From the sequence record MF327004: a stretch of DNA of 64,000 nucleotides. The stretch is one strand, 5' to 3'. Below the pieces are notes generated by a model that made no database searches, was not told where the DNA came from, and was given only the letters and a program-made list of their open reading frames with translations. Shown here piece after piece: positions 12,730 to 56,903 of this stretch. The translations under genes were made by a program, and so were the position numbers. Within the stretch, counting starts at the first letter, position 1, and every line of letters starts with the position of its first letter. This DNA is from Shigella phage Sf17.

Positions 12730-12745
12730 GGGGCTACACAGCCCC
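12730..12745 (+). other. intercistronic hairpin GGGGCT-acac-AGCCCC
   Basis: Perfect 6-bp stem between the two fibre genes, no T-run; same stem sequence recurs at 46455 and 51519. Confidence 0.4.
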
Positions 12746-23319: not shown

Positions 23320-23571
23320 TCAATAAAATAAGTCTGAAGCTTTTGAATTTACAGGATTCAAAGAACCTTCGTAATGTTCTTCATAACCCTCTTGGCAGAT
23401 ATTATACAGTTCTTTGAATCGGGTTTCATCAACTGGTTTAACATCTTTCTTAGCGCATAAGAAGAGATACCAATCATACCCCAAATCCCTGCACCAAGCC
23501 TCTGAGACAAAAGCTATTGATTTGTCTTCGCTCTTGAAGATTGCTAAAGCTTCTTGCTCTTTATTGCTCAC
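23320..23571 (-). CDS. hypothetical protein
   Basis: 83-aa ORF, co-oriented. Confidence 0.4.
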   Translation of the reverse strand: MSNKEQEALAIFKSEDKSIAFVSEAWCRDLGYDWYLFLCAKKDVKPVDETRFKELYNICQEGYEEHYEGSLNPVNSKASDLFY

Positions 23572-23782
23572 GATACTCTACCTCTCTAAAAGTTTTATGG
23601 TAATAGATTTTGTAGTAAGCTATCTCGTTACTTTTAACATTTGTTTTAAGAAGAGTCCAGTCATAACCTTCACCAACTCTTCCCCAAATGCTATAAAGTT
23701 TCATTAAAGATACTCCATCCAGTTTTCTGCCAAGGTTCCCCCTTGTACCATGCAGCCATTGGGTAACCCATTTCACATACAA
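23561..23782 (-). CDS. hypothetical protein
   Basis: 73-aa ORF; overlaps ORF 23691-23897 by 92 nt, internal ATG at 23704 would reduce overlap to 14 nt. Confidence 0.35.
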   Translation of the reverse strand: MYVKWVTQWLHGTRGNLGRKLDGVSLMKLYSIWGRVGEGYDWTLLKTNVKSNEIAYYKIYYHKTFREVEYREQ

Positions 23783-23897
23783 CCTTTCCGTCTTTTATTT
23801 CAAAGAACTCATCAGATGTGAAATTTTCATTTCGAACTTTCTTGCCCTGTTTCATAGCTTCGAGAGCTTCTTCGTATGTCATTTTTGGTGTCTCCAA
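23691..23897 (-). CDS. hypothetical protein
   Basis: 68-aa ORF, co-oriented. Confidence 0.4.
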   Translation of the reverse strand: METPKMTYEEALEAMKQGKKVRNENFTSDEFFEIKDGKVVCEMGYPMAAWYKGEPWQKTGWSIFNETL

Positions 23898-34439: not shown

Positions 34440-34656
34440 AATGTTTAATAAAATCAAAAATGACCATGTTTCTAAAATCCAGAGTGGTGTAGCAGCACTG
34501 AAGGAAACTATCAGTAAAGCTAAGTCAGCTACAGAAGCTGAGATGGATGCTCTGGAATCACAAATTCAACATCTGTTAAGCAAACGTGTTGAACTCAAAG
34601 AACGAATGGACTATATTGAGTCTCAACAAAAGTTGTTTGAAGATAAGGAGGCTTAA
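34426..34656 (+). CDS. hypothetical coiled-coil protein
   Basis: 76-aa ORF, overlapping neighbours. Confidence 0.4.
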   Translation: MREFKMFNKIKNDHVSKIQSGVAALKETISKAKSATEAEMDALESQIQHLLSKRVELKERMDYIESQQKLFEDKEA

Positions 34657-35411
34657 TGTTTAATTCCAGAGAATCCGTAAGAAATTGGAATCTACGTTGT
34701 GGCAATAATCCAAAAGAACCATACAGCACAGAGTATTGGGAATCACTGAAAAGCCAATCTCTGTGTATGCTTGAAGAAGCTAGAGAGTTAGTCGCAGCAG
34801 TAGAAGCCAAAGACCCTGTTGAGACCCTTGATGCTCAAGCTGATTTGCAGTATGTACTTGATGGTTTAATTTTCCTGACACAACATGACCATGATGGTGC
34901 TATCAAGGCTGTTTGTGAAAACAACAACCTCAAATACACAGACGACTATCAAGAAGCTCTACAGCGAATGTTTGATATTGAGAAACGTACTGGTGATGAA
35001 TGTTACCTGCGTCAATCAATCATCGAAGGTAAAGAGTGGTTTGCGATTATTCGCAAGTCTGATGGTAAGATTATGAAACAGTCTAATCTTCCAAAAGTTC
35101 AACTTGAAAGTTTTATTGCAGAAGTTGACGCAAAAGAATTATTTGTGGTAACATCTGACACATGCGTTATCTGCCAAGGACTGATTGGAAGTCTTGGTAG
35201 TCTTGGCATTAAAAACTTTTCTAAAGTTGAACCAATCTCTTCAAAAGCAGATAAAGATTTCTGCCGTGAGAATGGATTATGGCTTGCGGATATTGTGTAC
35301 TATGATGGTGAGAAGTTCCATGTAACCTCATATCCGAAATTGAATTATGATGCAATCAACCTCAAGCAGTGGTTGAAAGGAGTCGGTTATAATGGATTCA
35401 CAGAACATTAA
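34656..35411 (+). CDS. hypothetical protein (N-terminal region vaguely MazG/NTP-pyrophosphohydrolase-like)
   Basis: 251 aa; N-terminal helical region with conserved acidic residues (EEARELVAAVEAKD, LDGLIF); assignment unverified. Confidence 0.3.
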   Translation: MFNSRESVRNWNLRCGNNPKEPYSTEYWESLKSQSLCMLEEARELVAAVEAKDPVETLDAQADLQYVLDGLIFLTQHDHDGAIKAVCENNNLKYTDDYQEALQRMFDIEKRTGDECYLRQSIIEGKEWFAIIRKSDGKIMKQSNLPKVQLESFIAEVDAKELFVVTSDTCVICQGLIGSLGSLGIKNFSKVEPISSKADKDFCRENGLWLADIVYYDGEKFHVTSYPKLNYDAINLKQWLKGVGYNGFTEH

Positions 35412-42410: not shown

Positions 42411-42425
42411 ATTGGAGATAATAAA

Positions 42426-42608
42426 ATGTTGAAAATTGGCAAGGTTTACCTTTTCGTTGCAGGAAAGTCTAATCGCACACTTGAGGCTGTCCTCAAACAT
42501 GTATCTGAAAATAAATACACTGTGTCTTGGCAAGGTTCTAATGGGGTATGGTATGACGAGGACTTAACAAAAAACGTTTGGAAAGTGTATCAAGAGGTCA
42601 CAGCATGA
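42426..42608 (+). CDS. hypothetical protein
   Basis: ATG 42426 preceded by GGAGA SD (track start 42387 lies within terminator); about 60 aa. Confidence 0.4.
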   Translation: MLKIGKVYLFVAGKSNRTLEAVLKHVSENKYTVSWQGSNGVWYDEDLTKNVWKVYQEVTA

Positions 42609-44715: not shown

Positions 44716-44728
44716 ACGTATATGATTA

Positions 44729-44756
44729 GGGAACTGTAAAAGGTTCCCTTTTTATT
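44729..44756 (+). terminator. rho-independent terminator
   Basis: GGGAAC - tgtaaaag - GTTCCC followed by TTTTTATTTT. Confidence 0.55.
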
Positions 44757-44767
44757 TTGGAGAAATC

Positions 44768-45283
44768 ATGTACCATTCAAATCTGAAACGTGCTGCTGCA
44801 ATGTCTGTTCTTCGTCTTGATTTTGATGAGCGTCAAGAGTTCATCGATTCACATCAGTATGACCCTTCAAATTCTAACCACATGGTACTTTGGAACCGTG
44901 GTAAGTTTCGTGATAGTGCCTTGTTCCAGTACTACCCTCACTATACTATTGACAACCTCTATGAATACTGTGTTGTCAAGAACACTATTGCAACTCTTAA
45001 TAAGCTTTGTAGATATTCTGGAAAGAAAGCTTTCACATTAGGCCACCATAAGCCCGTGACAAAAGGTGGAGAGCACCATTGCTCGAACTGGTTTATCCAG
45101 ACTCAAGAAGATAACCAGAAGCAGGGAGAGAAGCTTCCAGAAGCCCCTAAGATGACTTGGGAGGAACAGAAAGCATATCTTAAAAATAATATGCCACCAA
45201 TGCTTGACAGGGAATATGCAGTTCTGGCAATATCACTCTTGTTGAAGCTTGAGACAGTTTATGAGGCAACTTATCATGGCTAG
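44768..45283 (+). CDS. HNH-type endonuclease-like protein
   Basis: His/Cys-rich core GHHKPVTKGGEHHCSNW resembles HNH motif; free-standing gene. Confidence 0.4.
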   Translation: MYHSNLKRAAAMSVLRLDFDERQEFIDSHQYDPSNSNHMVLWNRGKFRDSALFQYYPHYTIDNLYEYCVVKNTIATLNKLCRYSGKKAFTLGHHKPVTKGGEHHCSNWFIQTQEDNQKQGEKLPEAPKMTWEEQKAYLKNNMPPMLDREYAVLAISLLLKLETVYEATYHG

Positions 45284-45554
45284 AGAACAATGGGATATCA
45301 AAGAGCTTATTAGCGAAGCTGGAAATGGTAGTGAGATGTATATGATACGTGGTCACGTCCCAGATGCACTTGCTATTGAGATGATAGACCACTACTCCAA
45401 CGGATTCTATAAAGAGTTTGGAGAGCCAAATATTGAACGTACTTGGACAAAACCAGTACCAGACGGAACAGGAAACTGTTCAGTTATCTACCACATTGTA
45501 GACCCAAAGAAATGTAAATCAGCTATGGCTGTAACATTTGTAACTTTTGACTGA
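45276..45554 (+). CDS. hypothetical protein
   Basis: ATG 45276 overlapping HNH stop; about 92 aa. Confidence 0.35.
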   Translation: MAREQWDIKELISEAGNGSEMYMIRGHVPDALAIEMIDHYSNGFYKEFGEPNIERTWTKPVPDGTGNCSVIYHIVDPKKCKSAMAVTFVTFD

Positions 45555-45564
45555 GAGAGATATT

Positions 45565-46446
45565 ATGAAAACTACTATTCGAGTTCTACTTAATTCAAAT
45601 TCCAAAGGTTCTCATCAAGAGACCTTCAACATTATCCAGTTCCCTTCTGGGGAGATTGGTGGTAACTTCTCAGAAGACTTAGTAGGCTTTGTTGAACATG
45701 CTGCTGGTAAGATTGAAAATGTTATCTTCACTGTACAAGGCTATGACAAAGACACACTCTTTGCATTGGCTATGGCTAAAGAGGCTATTGACCGTTTGAT
45801 TCCTCAGAAAGCAACCATGAAAACTGTTCTTTTTGGATTCTTACCAAATGCTCGCTATGACCGTCACATGTTTAAAGGTGATTCAGCAGCACTTAAAGTC
45901 TTTGCAAATCTTGTAAATGCTATGGGGTTTGATGCAGTATGTGCTCTGGATACTCACAGTAATGTAGCAGAGAACTTGTTTAAGTGCTTCTACAACATCC
46001 CTCAAAAAGAGGCAGCAGTCCACTTTGCAAGTGACCCACGTATTGATTACTTAGTGGCTCCAGATGCAGGTGCAGCTAAGAAGACTGAAGAGGCTGCTAA
46101 AGAGGTTGAGAAACCTTATATTACAATGGCGAAGGTACGAAACCTGAAAACTGGTGAAATCACTGGTATGCGCATCCTTGATGATGTAGACTTAACAGGT
46201 AAGACTGTTATGATTCTGGATGATATCTGTGATGGTGGTCGAACCTTTATCGAGGCTGCAAAGTATCTTCGTGAAGCTGGAGCAGAACGTGTAGAGCTTT
46301 ATGTTACTCATGGGATTTTCTCTAAAGGTGTTGAAAATCTCCTTGACAATGGTATCGACCATATCTACACTACAAACTCACTAGGGGATGAAAAAGACCG
46401 TGGTCTTTCCCACTTCTCACAAGTGACCGTAGCAAATATTGAATAA
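45565..46446 (+). CDS. prs: ribose-phosphate pyrophosphokinase (PRPP synthetase)
   Basis: Segment GKTVMILDDICDGGRTFIEAAKYL matches the PRPP-binding loop; ATG 45565 after GAGAGAGA (track start 45547 is TTG). Confidence 0.75.
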   Translation: MKTTIRVLLNSNSKGSHQETFNIIQFPSGEIGGNFSEDLVGFVEHAAGKIENVIFTVQGYDKDTLFALAMAKEAIDRLIPQKATMKTVLFGFLPNARYDRHMFKGDSAALKVFANLVNAMGFDAVCALDTHSNVAENLFKCFYNIPQKEAAVHFASDPRIDYLVAPDAGAAKKTEEAAKEVEKPYITMAKVRNLKTGEITGMRILDDVDLTGKTVMILDDICDGGRTFIEAAKYLREAGAERVELYVTHGIFSKGVENLLDNGIDHIYTTNSLGDEKDRGLSHFSQVTVANIE

Positions 46447-46454
46447 CAACTTTA

Positions 46455-46470
46455 GGGGCTGAAAAGCCCC
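46455..46470 (+). other. intercistronic hairpin GGGGCT-gaaa-AGCCCC
   Basis: Perfect 6-bp stem with GAAA loop between prs and NAMPT genes; identical to the hairpin inside the rIIB promoter spacer. Confidence 0.4.
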
Positions 46471-46490
46471 ACTTTGAGAGAGATAAAAAG

Positions 46491-48308
46491 ATGACTAAAT
46501 CAATCTATGCAGTACCAGCAGGTCTTAATGCAGATGCTTATAAAGCGGGTCATATCTATCAGTATCCAGATGCTACACAGTATCTTATGCTGAACTTAAC
46601 ACCTCGTGGAGATAAATGGTTTAACTCTCCGTTAGAGATTGATGGTGTTGTAGCTTTTGGTATTCAGCGTTTTGTAAAAGACTATCTGGTAGACCACTGG
46701 AATGCAACGTTCTTTGAACGTGATAAGAAAGAAGCCATTGACGAAATCTTGGAAATCATGAATGGTGTCCTTGGTGCAGATGCTATTGGTCGTCAACATT
46801 GGGAAGAACTTCATGACTTGGGTTACCTGCCTGTTGAAGTCTACTCTGTAGAGGAAGGTACAATTGTCCCTATGCGTGTCCCGATGATTGTCTTCAAAAA
46901 CACTGTAGAAGGATTCCATTGGGTAGCTGGTTATCTTGAAGATGCTTTCTCTGCTGAAATCTGGAAGGCTTGTACGATTGCAACTATTGCACTGCATTAC
47001 AAACGTATCTGTAAGCAATGGGCTGATAAGACCTGTGACAATGACTTCCATTTACCTTGGCAGTGTCATGACTTTGCAATGCGTGGTATGTCTGGCTTCA
47101 CAGATGATGCGTTTAACGCAGTAGGTCACCTGACAAGTTTTAAAGGTACTGACAGCTTCCCTGCTGTATATACAGCTAAACGTGCATATGGTCAGTTTAT
47201 GAATGTAGGTGAGATTGGTAACTCTGTCCCGGCTACTGAGCACTCTGTGATGTGTGCAAACATCTCATGGAACAGTCTTAACAAAGAGGTAAGTGATTGG
47301 CATCTATCGCATTCTGACAACTTACTTGATGCAATGCGTTGGCGTGGTGAGGTAGAAACTTTCCATCGCCTTCTGACAGAAGTTTACCCAACTGGTATTG
47401 CAAGTGCCGTATCAGATACTTACAACTTCTGGCGTACTGTTACACAGATTCTGCCAGAGCTACGTAATGTAATCCTGAATCGTGATGGTAAGTTGGTAAT
47501 CCGTCCAGACTCTGGAGACCCTGTTCACATTGTCACAGGTTACAAAGCCATTGAATGGGAAACTGCTAAGTCAATGTTCTATAAGCACATGAAAGAGCTT
47601 GCACCGAACAATACACATCTGCATGACACAATCTTGAATTGTGAAATGTCTGATATTGGCTTTGGGTTCTCTGCTTGGCTAATCTCTGAAGGTTATGAGA
47701 TGGTTGTTGATAAAGAAGATTTTGAATCTGCTGATACAATCAACCTTATTACTGCTCAGAAGACTGGACAGTTTACTGTGAAGCGTATGTTAACAGCAGA
47801 AATTGATGGAGCTATCCACACGCTGTATAACATCTTTGGTGGCACTGTTAACTCCAAAGGGTACAAAGTACTGGATGAGCACATTGGGCTAATCTACGGT
47901 GATTCTATCACTCTGGAAAGGGCTAATGAGATTCTGTCACGTCTTGCTGATAAAGGTTTTGCAAGTTCTAACGTAGTGTTTGGTGTAGGCTCATACACCT
48001 ATCAGTACCTGACTCGTGACACCTTTGCATTTGCTGTTAAAGCAACTCTTGCACAGATGGACGGTCAAGAAATTATGCTGGCTAAAGACCCTAAAACTGA
48101 CAGCGGTCTTAAGAAGTCTGCTTTTGGTGGAGTTGTCCCTATGTGGGATGGTGACAAGCTGGTAGCTGTAGATGGTTTTGGCTTTGCAGAGTTTGAAGGT
48201 GCAATTGACAACTGTCATAGTGCTTTGAAACTGGTATTTAGCAACTCGCAACCTTATGGTTACATTAACCTGCGTGATGTTCGAAATACTATTGACAAGC
48301 AACTTTAA
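46491..48308 (+). CDS. nadV: nicotinamide phosphoribosyltransferase (NAMPT/NadV)
   Basis: 605 aa; segments LVIRPDSGDP and IYGDSITLERANEI match the NAMPT active-site region; about 100-aa insertion relative to canonical length. Confidence 0.75.
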   Translation: MTKSIYAVPAGLNADAYKAGHIYQYPDATQYLMLNLTPRGDKWFNSPLEIDGVVAFGIQRFVKDYLVDHWNATFFERDKKEAIDEILEIMNGVLGADAIGRQHWEELHDLGYLPVEVYSVEEGTIVPMRVPMIVFKNTVEGFHWVAGYLEDAFSAEIWKACTIATIALHYKRICKQWADKTCDNDFHLPWQCHDFAMRGMSGFTDDAFNAVGHLTSFKGTDSFPAVYTAKRAYGQFMNVGEIGNSVPATEHSVMCANISWNSLNKEVSDWHLSHSDNLLDAMRWRGEVETFHRLLTEVYPTGIASAVSDTYNFWRTVTQILPELRNVILNRDGKLVIRPDSGDPVHIVTGYKAIEWETAKSMFYKHMKELAPNNTHLHDTILNCEMSDIGFGFSAWLISEGYEMVVDKEDFESADTINLITAQKTGQFTVKRMLTAEIDGAIHTLYNIFGGTVNSKGYKVLDEHIGLIYGDSITLERANEILSRLADKGFASSNVVFGVGSYTYQYLTRDTFAFAVKATLAQMDGQEIMLAKDPKTDSGLKKSAFGGVVPMWDGDKLVAVDGFGFAEFEGAIDNCHSALKLVFSNSQPYGYINLRDVRNTIDKQL

Positions 48309-48322
48309 AACAGTATGATAAG

Positions 48323-48344
48323 AGGCTCCTACGGGAGCCTTTTT
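48323..48344 (+). terminator. rho-independent terminator (UACG tetraloop)
   Basis: AGGCTCC-TACG-GGAGCCT followed by TTTTT. Confidence 0.6.
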
Positions 48345-48349
48345 AATTT

Positions 48350-48577
48350 GTGGAGAATGATATGAGATTTAACACGGATTTATTTTATACAGATAGCACT
48401 GGATTTTTTGGTGGATATTGTGTAGCATCTTGGCAATTATGGTTCTCAGAAGAGTACAGGGGTGATATGCAGGTTTTTGTAGAAGACTATAAGTTCCCTG
48501 CAAAACCTACTAAACGCCAGATTAGAAAGCTTCGCAGAGAGTTTCGTAAAACTTGCAAAGGGATTAACAGGCTATGA
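48350..48577 (+). CDS. hypothetical protein
   Basis: 75-aa ORF with GTG start after GGAGAATGA; basic C-terminus. Confidence 0.35.
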   Translation: MENDMRFNTDLFYTDSTGFFGGYCVASWQLWFSEEYRGDMQVFVEDYKFPAKPTKRQIRKLRREFRKTCKGINRL

Positions 48578-51512: not shown

Positions 51513-51541
51513 TTGACAGGGGCTGAAAAGCCCCTTAGAAT
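51513..51541 (+). promoter_or_regulatory. sigma70-type promoter TTGACA-17-TAGAAT with hairpin filling the spacer
   Basis: Spacer is GGGGCT-gaaa-AGCCCC-T; 44 nt upstream of rIIB ATG. Confidence 0.5.
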
Positions 51542-56108: not shown

Positions 56109-56903
56109 ATGGGTATCGTAAAAATTATTAAAGGTGATATCTTTAAAGACTTTGATGGTAAGAAGTTTGATATCATTGGTCACGGTTGTAACTGCATGAA
56201 CTTGATGGGTTCAGGTATCGCAGCAACAATTGCTAAACGCTACCCAAAAGCTTATGAAACTGACGCTGAGGTTTATGCTACAGTAGGTGGTGAAAATCAT
56301 AACCCTAAGCACCTAATGCTTGGTAACATCTCTGTAGCACGTTTTAAGCAGGGTCGGATTGCTAACCTTTATACTCAGGTTATCACTGGCAAAGATGCAC
56401 GGTACAATGCTTTAGAAGCAGCTTTGCAGCGTCTGAATAATTACTGCAAAGTCAACCAACTTAAGAAAGTTGGGCTTCCTATGATTTGTGCAGGGATTGG
56501 TGGTCTTGATAGTATGGCTGTGCTGTCCATTATTAATCAGACTATGAAAGATGTTGACGTATATATGTATGTCTATGAAGATAAGATGTACAGTCAGTTG
56601 ACTAGTCCTGTTACTGGTTGGGAGAACTTCAGTGAGCCTCAATATTTTGATGGTGTTGCTGTGGTAGGCAAGGATAAAGTTACCCTCAAGGTGAAGCGTA
56701 ATGGCAAGGTACACACCAGTTACCCTCCGGTTGAGAAGTACAATCGAAGTAACGCTCAAGTTACCCACCCGTTACAAGGTCACCACCACAGAGCGGTAAC
56801 GTTTGGTGATGATGCAAGTGTGTATATCAATGCGACTACAGAAGAGTTTGCAGAAGATTATATCACACATGAAAACGTAAACTATGTTGAAGCACGTAAC
56901 TAA
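56109..56903 (+). CDS. macro-domain protein (Poa1p-like ADP-ribose-phosphate phosphatase family) with C-terminal extension
   Basis: ATG 56109; motifs KGDIFK, DIIGHGCNC, GSGIAATIAKRYP, GLPMICAGIGGLD parallel yeast Poa1p (IHSCNC ... GGGIAYQLALRYP); about 100 extra C-terminal residues. Confidence 0.5.
   Translation: MGIVKIIKGDIFKDFDGKKFDIIGHGCNCMNLMGSGIAATIAKRYPKAYETDAEVYATVGGENHNPKHLMLGNISVARFKQGRIANLYTQVITGKDARYNALEAALQRLNNYCKVNQLKKVGLPMICAGIGGLDSMAVLSIINQTMKDVDVYMYVYEDKMYSQLTSPVTGWENFSEPQYFDGVAVVGKDKVTLKVKRNGKVHTSYPPVEKYNRSNAQVTHPLQGHHHRAVTFGDDASVYINATTEEFAEDYITHENVNYVEARN

Follow-up and report, generated by a model that had tools for sequence, protein, structure and literature searches.

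Why does a phage that carries a PRPP-synthetase-like gene beside a NAMPT-like gene have no visible gene for an NMN adenylyltransferase (NMNAT)? The question arises at positions 45565-48308 of a 64,000-nucleotide stretch of Shigella phage Sf17 (record MF327004), hereafter the window, which covers about 63 of the roughly 90 kb of the genome. The initial annotation read the pair as producing NMN from nicotinamide with phage-made PRPP, and assigned the missing adenylyltransferase step to the host, to a gene outside the window or to an unrecognised ORF. We are instead highly confident that the pair constitutes NAD+ reconstitution pathway 1 (NARP1), composed of Adps and Namat. A locus of this type is already known: NARP1 was described in 2024, in work by Osterman and co-workers that reportedly appeared in Nature. 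The two genes are assigned as follows.

45565-46446, plus strand: Adps, ADP-ribose pyrophosphokinase (ADPR-PP synthetase), 293 aa, PRPP-synthetase fold; an alternative TTG start lies at 45547
46491-48308, plus strand: Namat, nicotinamide ADP-ribose transferase, 605 aa, NAMPT fold with an adenine-binding selectivity clamp

The proposed reactions begin with an NAD+-depleting defence (SIR2-HerA, type I Thoeris, DSR1/2, SEFIR or a similar system), which would split NAD+ into ADP-ribose and nicotinamide. Adps would attach the beta,gamma-pyrophosphate of ATP to ADP-ribose at its distal ribose, yielding ADPR-PP and AMP, and Namat would exchange the pyrophosphate of ADPR-PP for nicotinamide by NAMPT-type chemistry. 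The adenylate would already be contained in the substrate. Since NAD+ would thus arise in one step from ADPR-PP and nicotinamide, neither an NMN intermediate nor an adenylyltransferase would be required. The names "ribose-phosphate pyrophosphokinase" and "nicotinamide phosphoribosyltransferase" persist in every GenBank record of these phages, and it is this inherited naming that makes the adenylyltransferase look missing; once they are called Adps and Namat, the anomaly disappears. In the sequence, the assignment draws on orthology to the gene pair of phage Bas63, the Namat clamp signature, the retained catalytic residues and the negative search for an NMNAT.

The gene pair and its transcription unit

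Over this region the window is 98.9-99.2% identical to Shigella phages Sf18 and Sf19 (Ounavirinae, Mooglevirus). Both ORFs are present as the initial annotation described them, next to each other on one strand and 44 nt apart, and their Pfam and PHROG matches bear out the family-level homologies to a PRPP-synthetase fold and a NAMPT fold. Such an arrangement is more than chance, because a Namat gene adjoins 97% of the Adps-clade genes in a published census (Osterman et al. 2024, 10.1101/2024.02.11.579819). The pair is probably the 3' half of a four-gene transcript delimited by two terminators, with the following additional elements.

44728-44749, plus strand: intrinsic-terminator-like hairpin closing the preceding transcription unit; the terminator scan finds an 8-bp stem, then TTTTTATTTT
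44768-45283, plus strand: ORF of 171 aa, first gene of the terminator-bounded unit, phrog_3500 at 2e-93
45276-45554, plus strand: ORF of 92 aa, second gene of the unit, phrog_4726 at 7.6e-60
48320-48343, plus strand: strong intrinsic-terminator-like hairpin at the end of the unit, 10-bp stem, then a T run

The first hairpin forms the upstream edge of the unit, and the last one (-18.2 kcal/mol, z = -4.5) sits directly 3' of the Namat stop codon; Citrobacter phage Michonne has annotated terminators at the places equivalent to both. Neither upstream ORF has a match in the Pfam scan. The 171-aa product shows a weak HNH-like motif (HNH families at 2e-5) and is 52% identical to its counterpart at the same place upstream of the Erwinia phage Hena2 pair, and no sequence conservation of the 92-aa product was found in Hena2. 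The four small ORFs flanking the pair contain no Macro, Nudix, RyR or nucleotidyltransferase domain.

Assignment of Adps

The Adps product matches Pfam Pribosyltran/Pribosyl_synth and phrog_619. It is 82% identical to Bas63 gp79 across all 293 aa without a gap, and 99% identical to Sf19 gp104, an entry of Table S1 in Osterman et al. (2024, 10.1101/2024.02.11.579819) that is classed as Adps and has a Namat neighbour. The key residues of the ICP1 Adps structure are retained as R97, H131, D167, K190 and D219-D220, together with the donor (PP) loop ICDGGRTF at 221-228, which aligns with ICDGAASF in ICP1. K190 corresponds to K185 of ICP1, the beta-hairpin catalytic Lys; this Lys is common to Prs and is therefore non-discriminating. 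The likeness to the Adps of Vibrio phage ICP1, for which structures and kinetics are published (PMC13586617), thus covers the catalytic R, H, D and K as well as the DDICDG..F loop. The overall identity is 30%, and in the alignment the adenine-contacting aromatics F18 and F92 of ICP1 fall opposite H17 and M102, within an N-terminal stretch that aligns poorly.

We sought a single sequence rule dividing Adps from Prs and found none. The catalytic residues are common to both, the PP-loop sequence varies even among validated Adps proteins such as that of FADO, and pairwise scores do not place the window protein nearer FADO Adps than archaeal Prs. What supports the name Adps is therefore Bas63 orthology and the Namat neighbour, clade membership being taken from orthology rather than from a tree.

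Namat core and selectivity clamp

Namat matches Pfam NAPRTase and NAMPT_N and phrog_448 (1.6e-199). It is 76% identical to Bas63 gp80 and 100% identical to Sf19 gp105, an "Adps-associated" Namat in Table S2 of Osterman et al. (2024, 10.1101/2024.02.11.579819). The proteins of Sf18, Sf19 and 3HA14 all appear in those supplementary tables, as Adps (Namat nearby: Yes) and "Adps-associated" Namat. Among solved structures, the best match by both sequence and fold is the SpbetaL1 Namat (9w5w/9w5x; PMC12774641), with E 2.5e-125 and a target TM-score of 0.94. HdNadV and human NAMPT rank below these entries, and NAMPTs reach 1e-40 to 1e-50 by sequence.

The NAMPT-type catalytic core, i.e. the nicotinamide-stacking Phe/Tyr, Asp, catalytic His and RPD motif, is kept in the window protein as D15, Y17, F195, R198, D221, H251, R338 and D340, aligning with SpbetaL1 D13, Y15, F189, R192, D215, His, R306 and D308. 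The clamp that distinguishes Namat consists of two elements.

46599-46619, plus strand: selectivity-clamp loop (SCL), TPRGDKW, with K42 at the third loop position and W43 at the fourth, as in Bas63
47988-48020, plus strand: selectivity-clamp helix (SCH) motif, GSYTYQYLTRD, residues 500-510

The published loop rule calls for Arg, Lys or Tyr at the third position plus a stacking residue, and the Namat signature of the helix is GS-X-phi-X-phi-X-phi-TRD (PMC12774641). The window loop conforms with K42 followed by W43, K42 lying at the position of SpbetaL1 R40 in the alignment. In the helix, Y502 and Y506 occupy the adenine-stacking positions, and G500, S501, Y504, T508, R509 and D510 are invariant in alignment A4. 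The Bacillus phage SpbetaL1 system thus resembles the window in its two-gene layout, catalytic core, fold and SCH (GSFTYQYNTRD). It differs in its ~37% identity, in the Arg40 of its clamp loop where the window has Lys-Trp, and in a 491-aa Namat that has neither of the insertions described below. The ICP1 Namat (~440 aa) also lacks them.

Comparison with the Bas63 pair

The products gp79/gp80 of Escherichia phage JohannRWettstein (Bas63) are the pair on which NARP1 was discovered (Osterman et al. 2024, 10.1101/2024.02.11.579819). Bas63 without gp79-gp80 forms ~20-fold fewer plaques on SIR2-HerA cells, and ADPR-PP (m/z 720.010) is found in infected cells only when the gene pair is present (10.1101/2024.02.11.579819). 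Escape from NAD+-depleting defence has been demonstrated by deletions in Bas63 and FADO. The Bas63 enzymes themselves purified poorly, and the activities were shown for the SpbetaL1, ICP1, Paenibacillus and DyoEdafos homologues. The purified SpbetaL1 enzymes convert ADPR and ATP to ADPR-PP, and ADPR-PP and nicotinamide to NAD+ (10.1101/2024.02.11.579819). The homologues used for enzymology (SpbetaL1, ICP1 and others) share only 29-37% identity with the window proteins.

The window and Bas63 have the same gene order, with two small ORFs upstream and rIIA/rIIB downstream, an Adps of 293 aa in both, and common Namat insertions, clamp residues and intercistronic hairpin. The differences are the genus (Felixounavirus for Bas63, Mooglevirus for the window), a first Namat insertion that is 11-12 aa longer in the window, and the hairpin loop (TGAA in Bas63, GAAA in the window). 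By this orthology, the reactions, the ADPR-PP formation in vivo and the anti-defence phenotype would carry over to the window enzymes. The initial annotation was right to link the locus to escape from NAD+-depleting immunity. With this locus, the Shigella/E. coli phage studied here is predicted to resist SIR2-, TIR- and SEFIR-type NAD+-depleting defences, which is relevant to the choice of therapeutic phages.

Could the pair be a true PRPP synthetase and a true NAMPT that produce NMN, with host NadR, or PncC followed by NadD/NadE, completing NAD+? The Pfam and PHROG names agree with such a route, as does the GenBank annotation, and Namat homologues do yield NMN from PRPP in vitro if ADPR-PP is withheld. 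However, when Namat is offered both substrates only NAD+ is formed, and purified SpbetaL1 Adps gives no product in a Prs-type assay and makes ADPR-PP when supplied with ADPR. Moreover, the window protein has the adenine clamp, whereas true NAMPTs do not. Bas63 still overcomes SIR2-HerA in a pncC nadR double-deletion host (10.1101/2024.02.11.579819). Osterman et al. had started from the NMN reading and disproved it for the Bas63 pair, so that the PRPP-to-NMN route proposed initially for the window finds no support, nor does the search for its missing last step in the host or in a hidden gene. We consider a host-completed NMN route very improbable.

Equally improbable is a role in nucleotide supply, in which extra PRPP would feed phage nucleotide synthesis and the NAMPT-like protein would serve general NAD+ salvage unrelated to defence. 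The location is suggestive, since the nrdA/B/D/G, thymidylate synthase and dNMP kinase genes lie just upstream of the pair. However, in Bas63 infection ADPR-PP is formed only with the defence system, and the deletion phenotype is specific to the defence-carrying host. The Adps protein itself also argues against this role. It is 22 aa shorter than the 315-aa E. coli Prs, with which it shares 25% identity, and in alignment A3 it lacks the C-terminal segment of Prs (alpha11-alpha12 in PMC13586617). Adps homologues are reported to lack the same region and to have degenerate allosteric sites (PMC13586617).

Search for an NMN adenylyltransferase

The absence of an NMNAT noted initially holds after a systematic search, including the profile search of hypothetical ORFs that had been proposed as a check. 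In total, 73 ORFs were scanned with Pfam: 40 hypothetical ORFs of the window, 9 neighbouring ones and a further 24 from beyond the window in the Sf19 genome, which is 99% identical and stands in for the remaining 27 kb. No cytidylyltransferase/NMNAT family was detected in any of them. With E. coli NadD and NadR as queries, phmmer --max reached no better than E 1.2 on all 571 six-frame segments of the window and 0.84 on 816 segments covering the entire Sf19 genome. The sole HxGH tetrapeptide in the window lies inside a 46-aa antisense segment, and the Sf19 and Bas63 annotations list no NMNAT. An NMNAT homologue elsewhere in the genome, which would have pointed to a standard pathway, was thus not found in the Sf19 remainder by Pfam or phmmer. 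Its absence is expected rather than anomalous, because the orthologous Bas63 pair rebuilds NAD+ without the NMN route.

These results also bear on a NARP2-type pathway (NAMPT plus NMNAT) with the adenylyltransferase outside the window or in an unrecognised ORF. About 20% of phage Namat/Nampt homologues in the census do form a separate Nmnat-paired clade, as in Vibrio phage KVP40, and part of the genome lies beyond the window, but this reading is the least probable of all and can practically be dismissed, given the negative Pfam and phmmer searches of the window and the Sf19 remainder, the Namat clamp motif and a gene that adjoins Adps and is labelled "Adps-associated" rather than Nmnat-associated in the published table. 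KVP40 (NadV Nampt and NatV Nmnat/Nudix) resembles the window in that a NAMPT-fold enzyme restores NAD+ under NAD+-depleting immunity. In contrast, it proceeds from PRPP through NMN and needs the phage Nmnat. NARP2 is further defined by the absence of an Adps homologue anywhere in the phage genome, and here Adps is adjacent.

Insertions in Namat

The initial annotation recorded a ~100-aa insertion in the NAMPT-like protein. The size is right, as 98 aa are gained, but they fall into two insertions of 25 and 73 aa rather than one. Sizes are net gains against 495-aa relatives, and the same segments are gaps against SpbetaL1 Namat.

47262-47348, plus strand: insertion 1, residues ~258-286, net +25 aa, helical extension
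47544-47807, plus strand: insertion 2, residues ~352-439, net +73 aa, compact alpha/beta subdomain

In the AlphaFold model, helices span 251-262, 269-273 and 278-298 around insertion 1. Both insertions are lineage-specific and common to Bas63, and the subdomain formed by insertion 2 is specific to the Ounavirinae-type Namat. Although insertion 2 is confidently modelled, no fold relatives were found in the PDB or among viral models. It could add a function absent from the minimal 490-aa Namat, for example docking Adps to pass on the labile ADPR-PP, or regulation.

The intercistronic hairpin

46455-46470, plus strand: hairpin GGGGCT-GAAA-AGCCCC, 6-bp G+C stem and GAAA loop, GGGGCTGAAAAGCCCC

The GGGGCTgaaaAGCCCC hairpin is indeed located between the two genes, as noted initially, lying between the Adps stop and the Namat ribosome-binding site (-12.8 kcal/mol, z = -3.6 against shuffles). 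It occurs at the matching position in Bas63, Sf19 and Michonne and has no counterpart in Hena2, whose two genes lie 13 nt apart. We considered it as a terminator. The terminator scan, which requires five or more T among the 8 bases that follow the stem, does not call it, only three T being present. Nor is it a NARP1-specific element: an identical 16-mer separates rIIA from rIIB (51519-51534), and two tail-fibre genes have a variant between them (12730-12745). Within this phage group the hairpin recurs between genes and is not confined to this locus; it may tune the stability of the transcript or the proportion of Adps to Namat.

A Macro-domain protein and bacterial relatives

56109-56903, plus strand: Macro-domain protein, candidate accessory enzyme resembling Adpp, with a Pfam Macro hit (3.3e-7) that clears the family cut-off

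Adpp is the ADPR-1''-phosphate phosphatase of NARP1-AP (10.64898/2026.01.28.702374). The window protein matches phrog_335 "phosphatase" at 2e-105 and is 30% identical to Vibrio phage Gary Adpp over the whole of Adpp (E 2e-16). Its sole sequence matches among solved structures are to yeast Poa1p, an ADP-ribose 1''-phosphate phosphatase. In Gary, Adpp lies inside the operon (Adps-Adpp-Namat), whereas the Macro gene of the window is 7.8 kb, about 15 genes, downstream of the pair, and its product carries an extra C-terminal extension of ~110 aa. None of the four flanking ORFs supplies a Macro gene within two genes of the pair. The NARP1-AP census counted only Macro genes at most two genes from the pair, and Sf19 and Bas63 are missing from its table (10.64898/2026.01.28.702374).

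The Macro protein could serve as a trans-acting ADPR-1''-phosphate phosphatase. If so, Ounavirinae phages would be NARP1-AP-competent and resistant to the aRES defence. An elaborated NARP1 in Ounavirinae phages, combining an added function of insertion 2 with this unlinked protein in trans, is a tentative proposal, and we regard it as somewhat unlikely. Only the function of the inserted subdomain, the possible trans-acting Adpp and the NrtR control of bacterial relatives go beyond the literature that we searched.

The nearest insertion-free relatives of Namat (45% identity) are found on the chromosomes of Klebsiella, Phytobacter and Kosakonia, where they adjoin an Adps-like gene and a divergent NrtR gene. 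This layout matches the NrtR-regulated prs-nadV operons of gamma-proteobacteria (Rodionov et al. 2008, PMC2330246). Unlike the window pair, these systems are cellular and chromosomal, encode 495-aa proteins and are associated with an ADP-ribose-sensing repressor.

Identification of the locus

The two adjacent genes constitute a standard, already catalogued NARP1 locus, which pairs an ADP-ribose pyrophosphokinase (Adps) with a nicotinamide ADP-ribose transferase (Namat):

45565-46446, + strand: ORF 1 (Adps), 293 aa from ATG, with a TTG 18 nt upstream
46491-48308, + strand: ORF 2 (Namat), 605 aa

Pfam places the first ORF in Pribosyltran and Pribosyl_synth and the second in NAPRTase and NAMPT_N; the corresponding PHROG families are 619 "ribose-phosphate pyrophosphokinase" for the first and 448 "nicotinamide phosphoribosyl transferase" (1.6e-199) for the second. 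The 44-nt gap between them holds the hairpin GGGGCTGAAAAGCCCC at 46455-46470 followed by the ribosome-binding box GAGAGAGAT, which also precedes Adps. The initial annotation thus described the two genes and the intergenic hairpin accurately, but its interpretation, in which PRPP is used to make NMN and an adenylyltransferase is missing, is superseded by the known NARP1 locus.

The region is carried by about 260 Ounavirinae genomes, and is 98.9-99.2% identical in Shigella phages Sf18 and Sf19 and Escherichia phage 3HA14. The supplementary tables of Osterman et al. (bioRxiv 10.1101/2024.02.11.579819) enter the proteins of these three phages under Adps, with Namat nearby, and under "Adps-associated" Namat. 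Sf19 gp104 and gp105 are 99% and 100% identical to the window Adps and Namat, respectively. Direct comparison with Bas63, the Escherichia phage on which NARP1 was discovered, gives 82% identity for Adps over all 293 residues without gaps and 76% for Namat (605 aa in the window, 593 aa in Bas63), with identical gene order and neighbours around the pair.

The reading proposed in the initial annotation was also the initial reading of Osterman et al. for the two-gene operon (genes 79-80) of BASEL phage Bas63: Prs yields PRPP, Nampt yields NMN, and the host completes the synthesis. They then disproved it (10.1101/2024.02.11.579819). Bas63 without the operon performed about 20-fold worse on SIR2-HerA cells, and wild-type Bas63 still beat the defence when pncC and nadR, and with them both NMN-to-NAD+ routes, were missing. 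A new metabolite, ADPR-pyrophosphate (ADPR-PP), was seen only with defence and operon together. From the homologous SpbetaL1 operon, the first enzyme, once purified, pyrophosphorylated ADP-ribose and gave no Prs-type product; the second converted ADPR-PP and nicotinamide to NAD+, preferring ADPR-PP over PRPP when both were supplied. The same authors coined the names Adps, Namat and NARP1, counted the pathway in 859 phage genomes (4.3%), and found that 97% of Adps-clade genes have an adjacent Namat gene (10.1101/2024.02.11.579819).

Absence of an adenylyltransferase

The claim that no NMN adenylyltransferase (NMNAT) is encoded here is borne out. Pfam searches covering 40 hypothetical ORFs of the window, 9 neighbouring ORFs and 24 Sf19 ORFs beyond its limits returned no cytidylyltransferase/NMNAT family. 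The window corresponds to Sf19 positions 27025-90350, wrapping to 1-315, which leaves about 27 kb of the Sf19 genome uncovered. Nothing resembling NadD or NadR occurs in any reading frame (best E-values 1.2 in the window and 0.84 in the Sf19 genome), and no plausible gene contains an HxGH motif. This absence is a prediction of NARP1: because the AMP moiety never leaves the ribose, the pathway has no adenylylation step.

Sequence and structure of Namat and Adps

The window Namat keeps the NAMPT-type catalytic core whole. Among solved structures, its top sequence matches are the Namat entries 9w5w and 9w5x (E 2.5e-125), compared with 1e-40 to 1e-50 for true NAMPT structures. The AlphaFold model (pLDDT 89.9) has the Namat crystal structures as its best fold match (target TM-score 0.94), followed by Haemophilus NadV and human NAMPT. 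The feature distinguishing Namat from true NAMPT is an adenine-binding "selectivity clamp" that includes a variable loop with Arg, Lys or Tyr at its third position; where this is Lys or Tyr, stacking is provided by the fourth residue, as in Bas63 (PMC12774641). In the window Namat the clamp loop reads TPRGDKW (residues 37-43) and the clamp helix motif GSYTYQYLTRD (residues 500-510).

The window Adps keeps the residues that the ICP1 Adps structures single out as important (PMC13586617), namely R97, H131, D167, K190, D219/D220 and the donor loop ICDGGRTF, but these alone are insufficient to tell Adps from Prs. The protein has no counterpart of the E. coli Prs C-terminal segment, and two adenine-contacting aromatic residues of ICP1 Adps have no aromatic equivalent in the alignment, which is weak in that region. 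The assignment of ORF 45565-46446 as Adps is therefore based chiefly on its Bas63 orthology and its Namat partner.

Transcription unit and intergenic hairpin

The pair probably makes up the 3' half of a unit of four genes, because good terminators were called on both sides:

44728-44749: good terminator
44768-45283, + strand: small ORF, 171 aa, phrog_3500, weak HNH-like motif LGHHKPVTKGGEHHCSNW
45276-45554, + strand: small ORF, 92 aa
48320-48343: good terminator directly after Namat

Both terminators are annotated at the corresponding sites in Citrobacter phage Michonne. Erwinia phage Hena2 has a counterpart of the 171-aa ORF (52% identity) in the equivalent place ahead of its pair, whereas the 92-aa ORF is not conserved in that phage.

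The hairpin at 46455-46470 is stable (-12.8 kcal/mol, z = -3.6), but the terminator scan, with its threshold of 5 or more T among the 8 bases after the stem, did not call it; only three T follow. The pattern GGGGCT-N4-AGCCCC occurs in three intergenic copies (12730-12745, 46455-46470 and 51519-51534), against a chance expectation of 0.01 per window. The rIIA/rIIB copy at 51519-51534 is the identical 16-mer and occupies the 17-nt spacer of a promoter-like TTGACA-17-TAGAAT, and the variant copy at 12730-12745 lies between two tail-fibre genes, with TAGAAA after it. The Adps/Namat and rIIA/rIIB copies are at conserved positions in Bas63 and Sf19; in Hena2 the hairpin is absent and the Adps and Namat genes are 13 nt apart. 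The hairpin recurs in intergenic gaps within this phage group and does not belong to the NARP1 pathway; transcript processing, transcript stability or partial attenuation are possible roles.

Associated genes and bacterial relatives

Modest remaining value lies in the Namat subdomain (an inserted 73-aa region), a Macro-domain protein and NrtR-linked bacterial relatives.

56109-56903, + strand: 264-aa Macro-domain protein, Pfam Macro, PHROG 335 (phrog_335) "phosphatase"

This product matches Vibrio phage Gary Adpp at 30% identity (E 2e-16) over the whole Adpp length, and its sole sequence match among solved structures (PDB) is yeast Poa1p, an ADP-ribose 1''-phosphate phosphatase. Its gene lies 7.8 kb from the pair, and compared with Gary Adpp the protein carries about 110 additional aa at its C-terminus. 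Adpp is the ADPR-1''-phosphate phosphatase of NARP1-AP and enables phages to overcome aRES, a defence whose NAD+ cleavage product, ADPR-1''-phosphate, is not a substrate for Adps. The NARP1-AP study counted Macro genes only if located at most 2 genes from the pair; Sf19 and Bas63 are absent from its table. The Macro protein could provide Sf17 with aRES resistance in trans; its link to NARP1 is hypothetical, since phages of many kinds, among them many T4-like ones, very commonly carry this family.

The insertion-free proteins nearest to the window Namat (45% identity) are encoded on the chromosomes of Klebsiella, Phytobacter and Kosakonia. In Klebsiella michiganensis (contig DAHJTQ010000013.1; 3127-5491 and 2211-2930), a 289-aa Prs-like gene precedes the Namat relative; a second chromosomal locus likewise pairs such a relative with an Adps-like gene. 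The K. michiganensis Prs-like protein is closer to phage Adps (49% identity with that of the window, 39% with that of ICP1) than to E. coli Prs (28%), and a divergent Nudix/WHD_NrtR gene adjoins this pair. Rodionov et al. 2008 (PMC2330246) described prs-nadV operons repressed by NrtR, which ADP-ribose releases, and called the co-regulation "quite unexpected". If prs-nadV is read as Adps-Namat, the substrate ADP-ribose would, by releasing NrtR, switch on the pathway that recycles it, and in the NrtR-linked relatives it may in this way promote its own conversion back to NAD+. In the literature searched, a single introduction is the only text to mention NrtR alongside Namat, Adps or NARP1.

Other observations

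Just past the Namat terminator, a 192-bp segment (48380-48571) comprising most of a 75-aa DUF7279 ORF (48350-48577) is missing from the otherwise 99%-identical Sf19 but present in Michonne, a small indel bordering the unit. Two more short stretches, 23570-23867 and 42414-42605, likewise fail to align when the window is mapped onto Sf19 by blastn. The nucleotide-metabolism block upstream of the pair contains another, putative, nucleotide pyrophosphatase:

34656-35411, + strand: MazG-like / phosphoribosyl-ATP pyrophosphohydrolase-like protein, Pfam PRA-PH, phrog_2144
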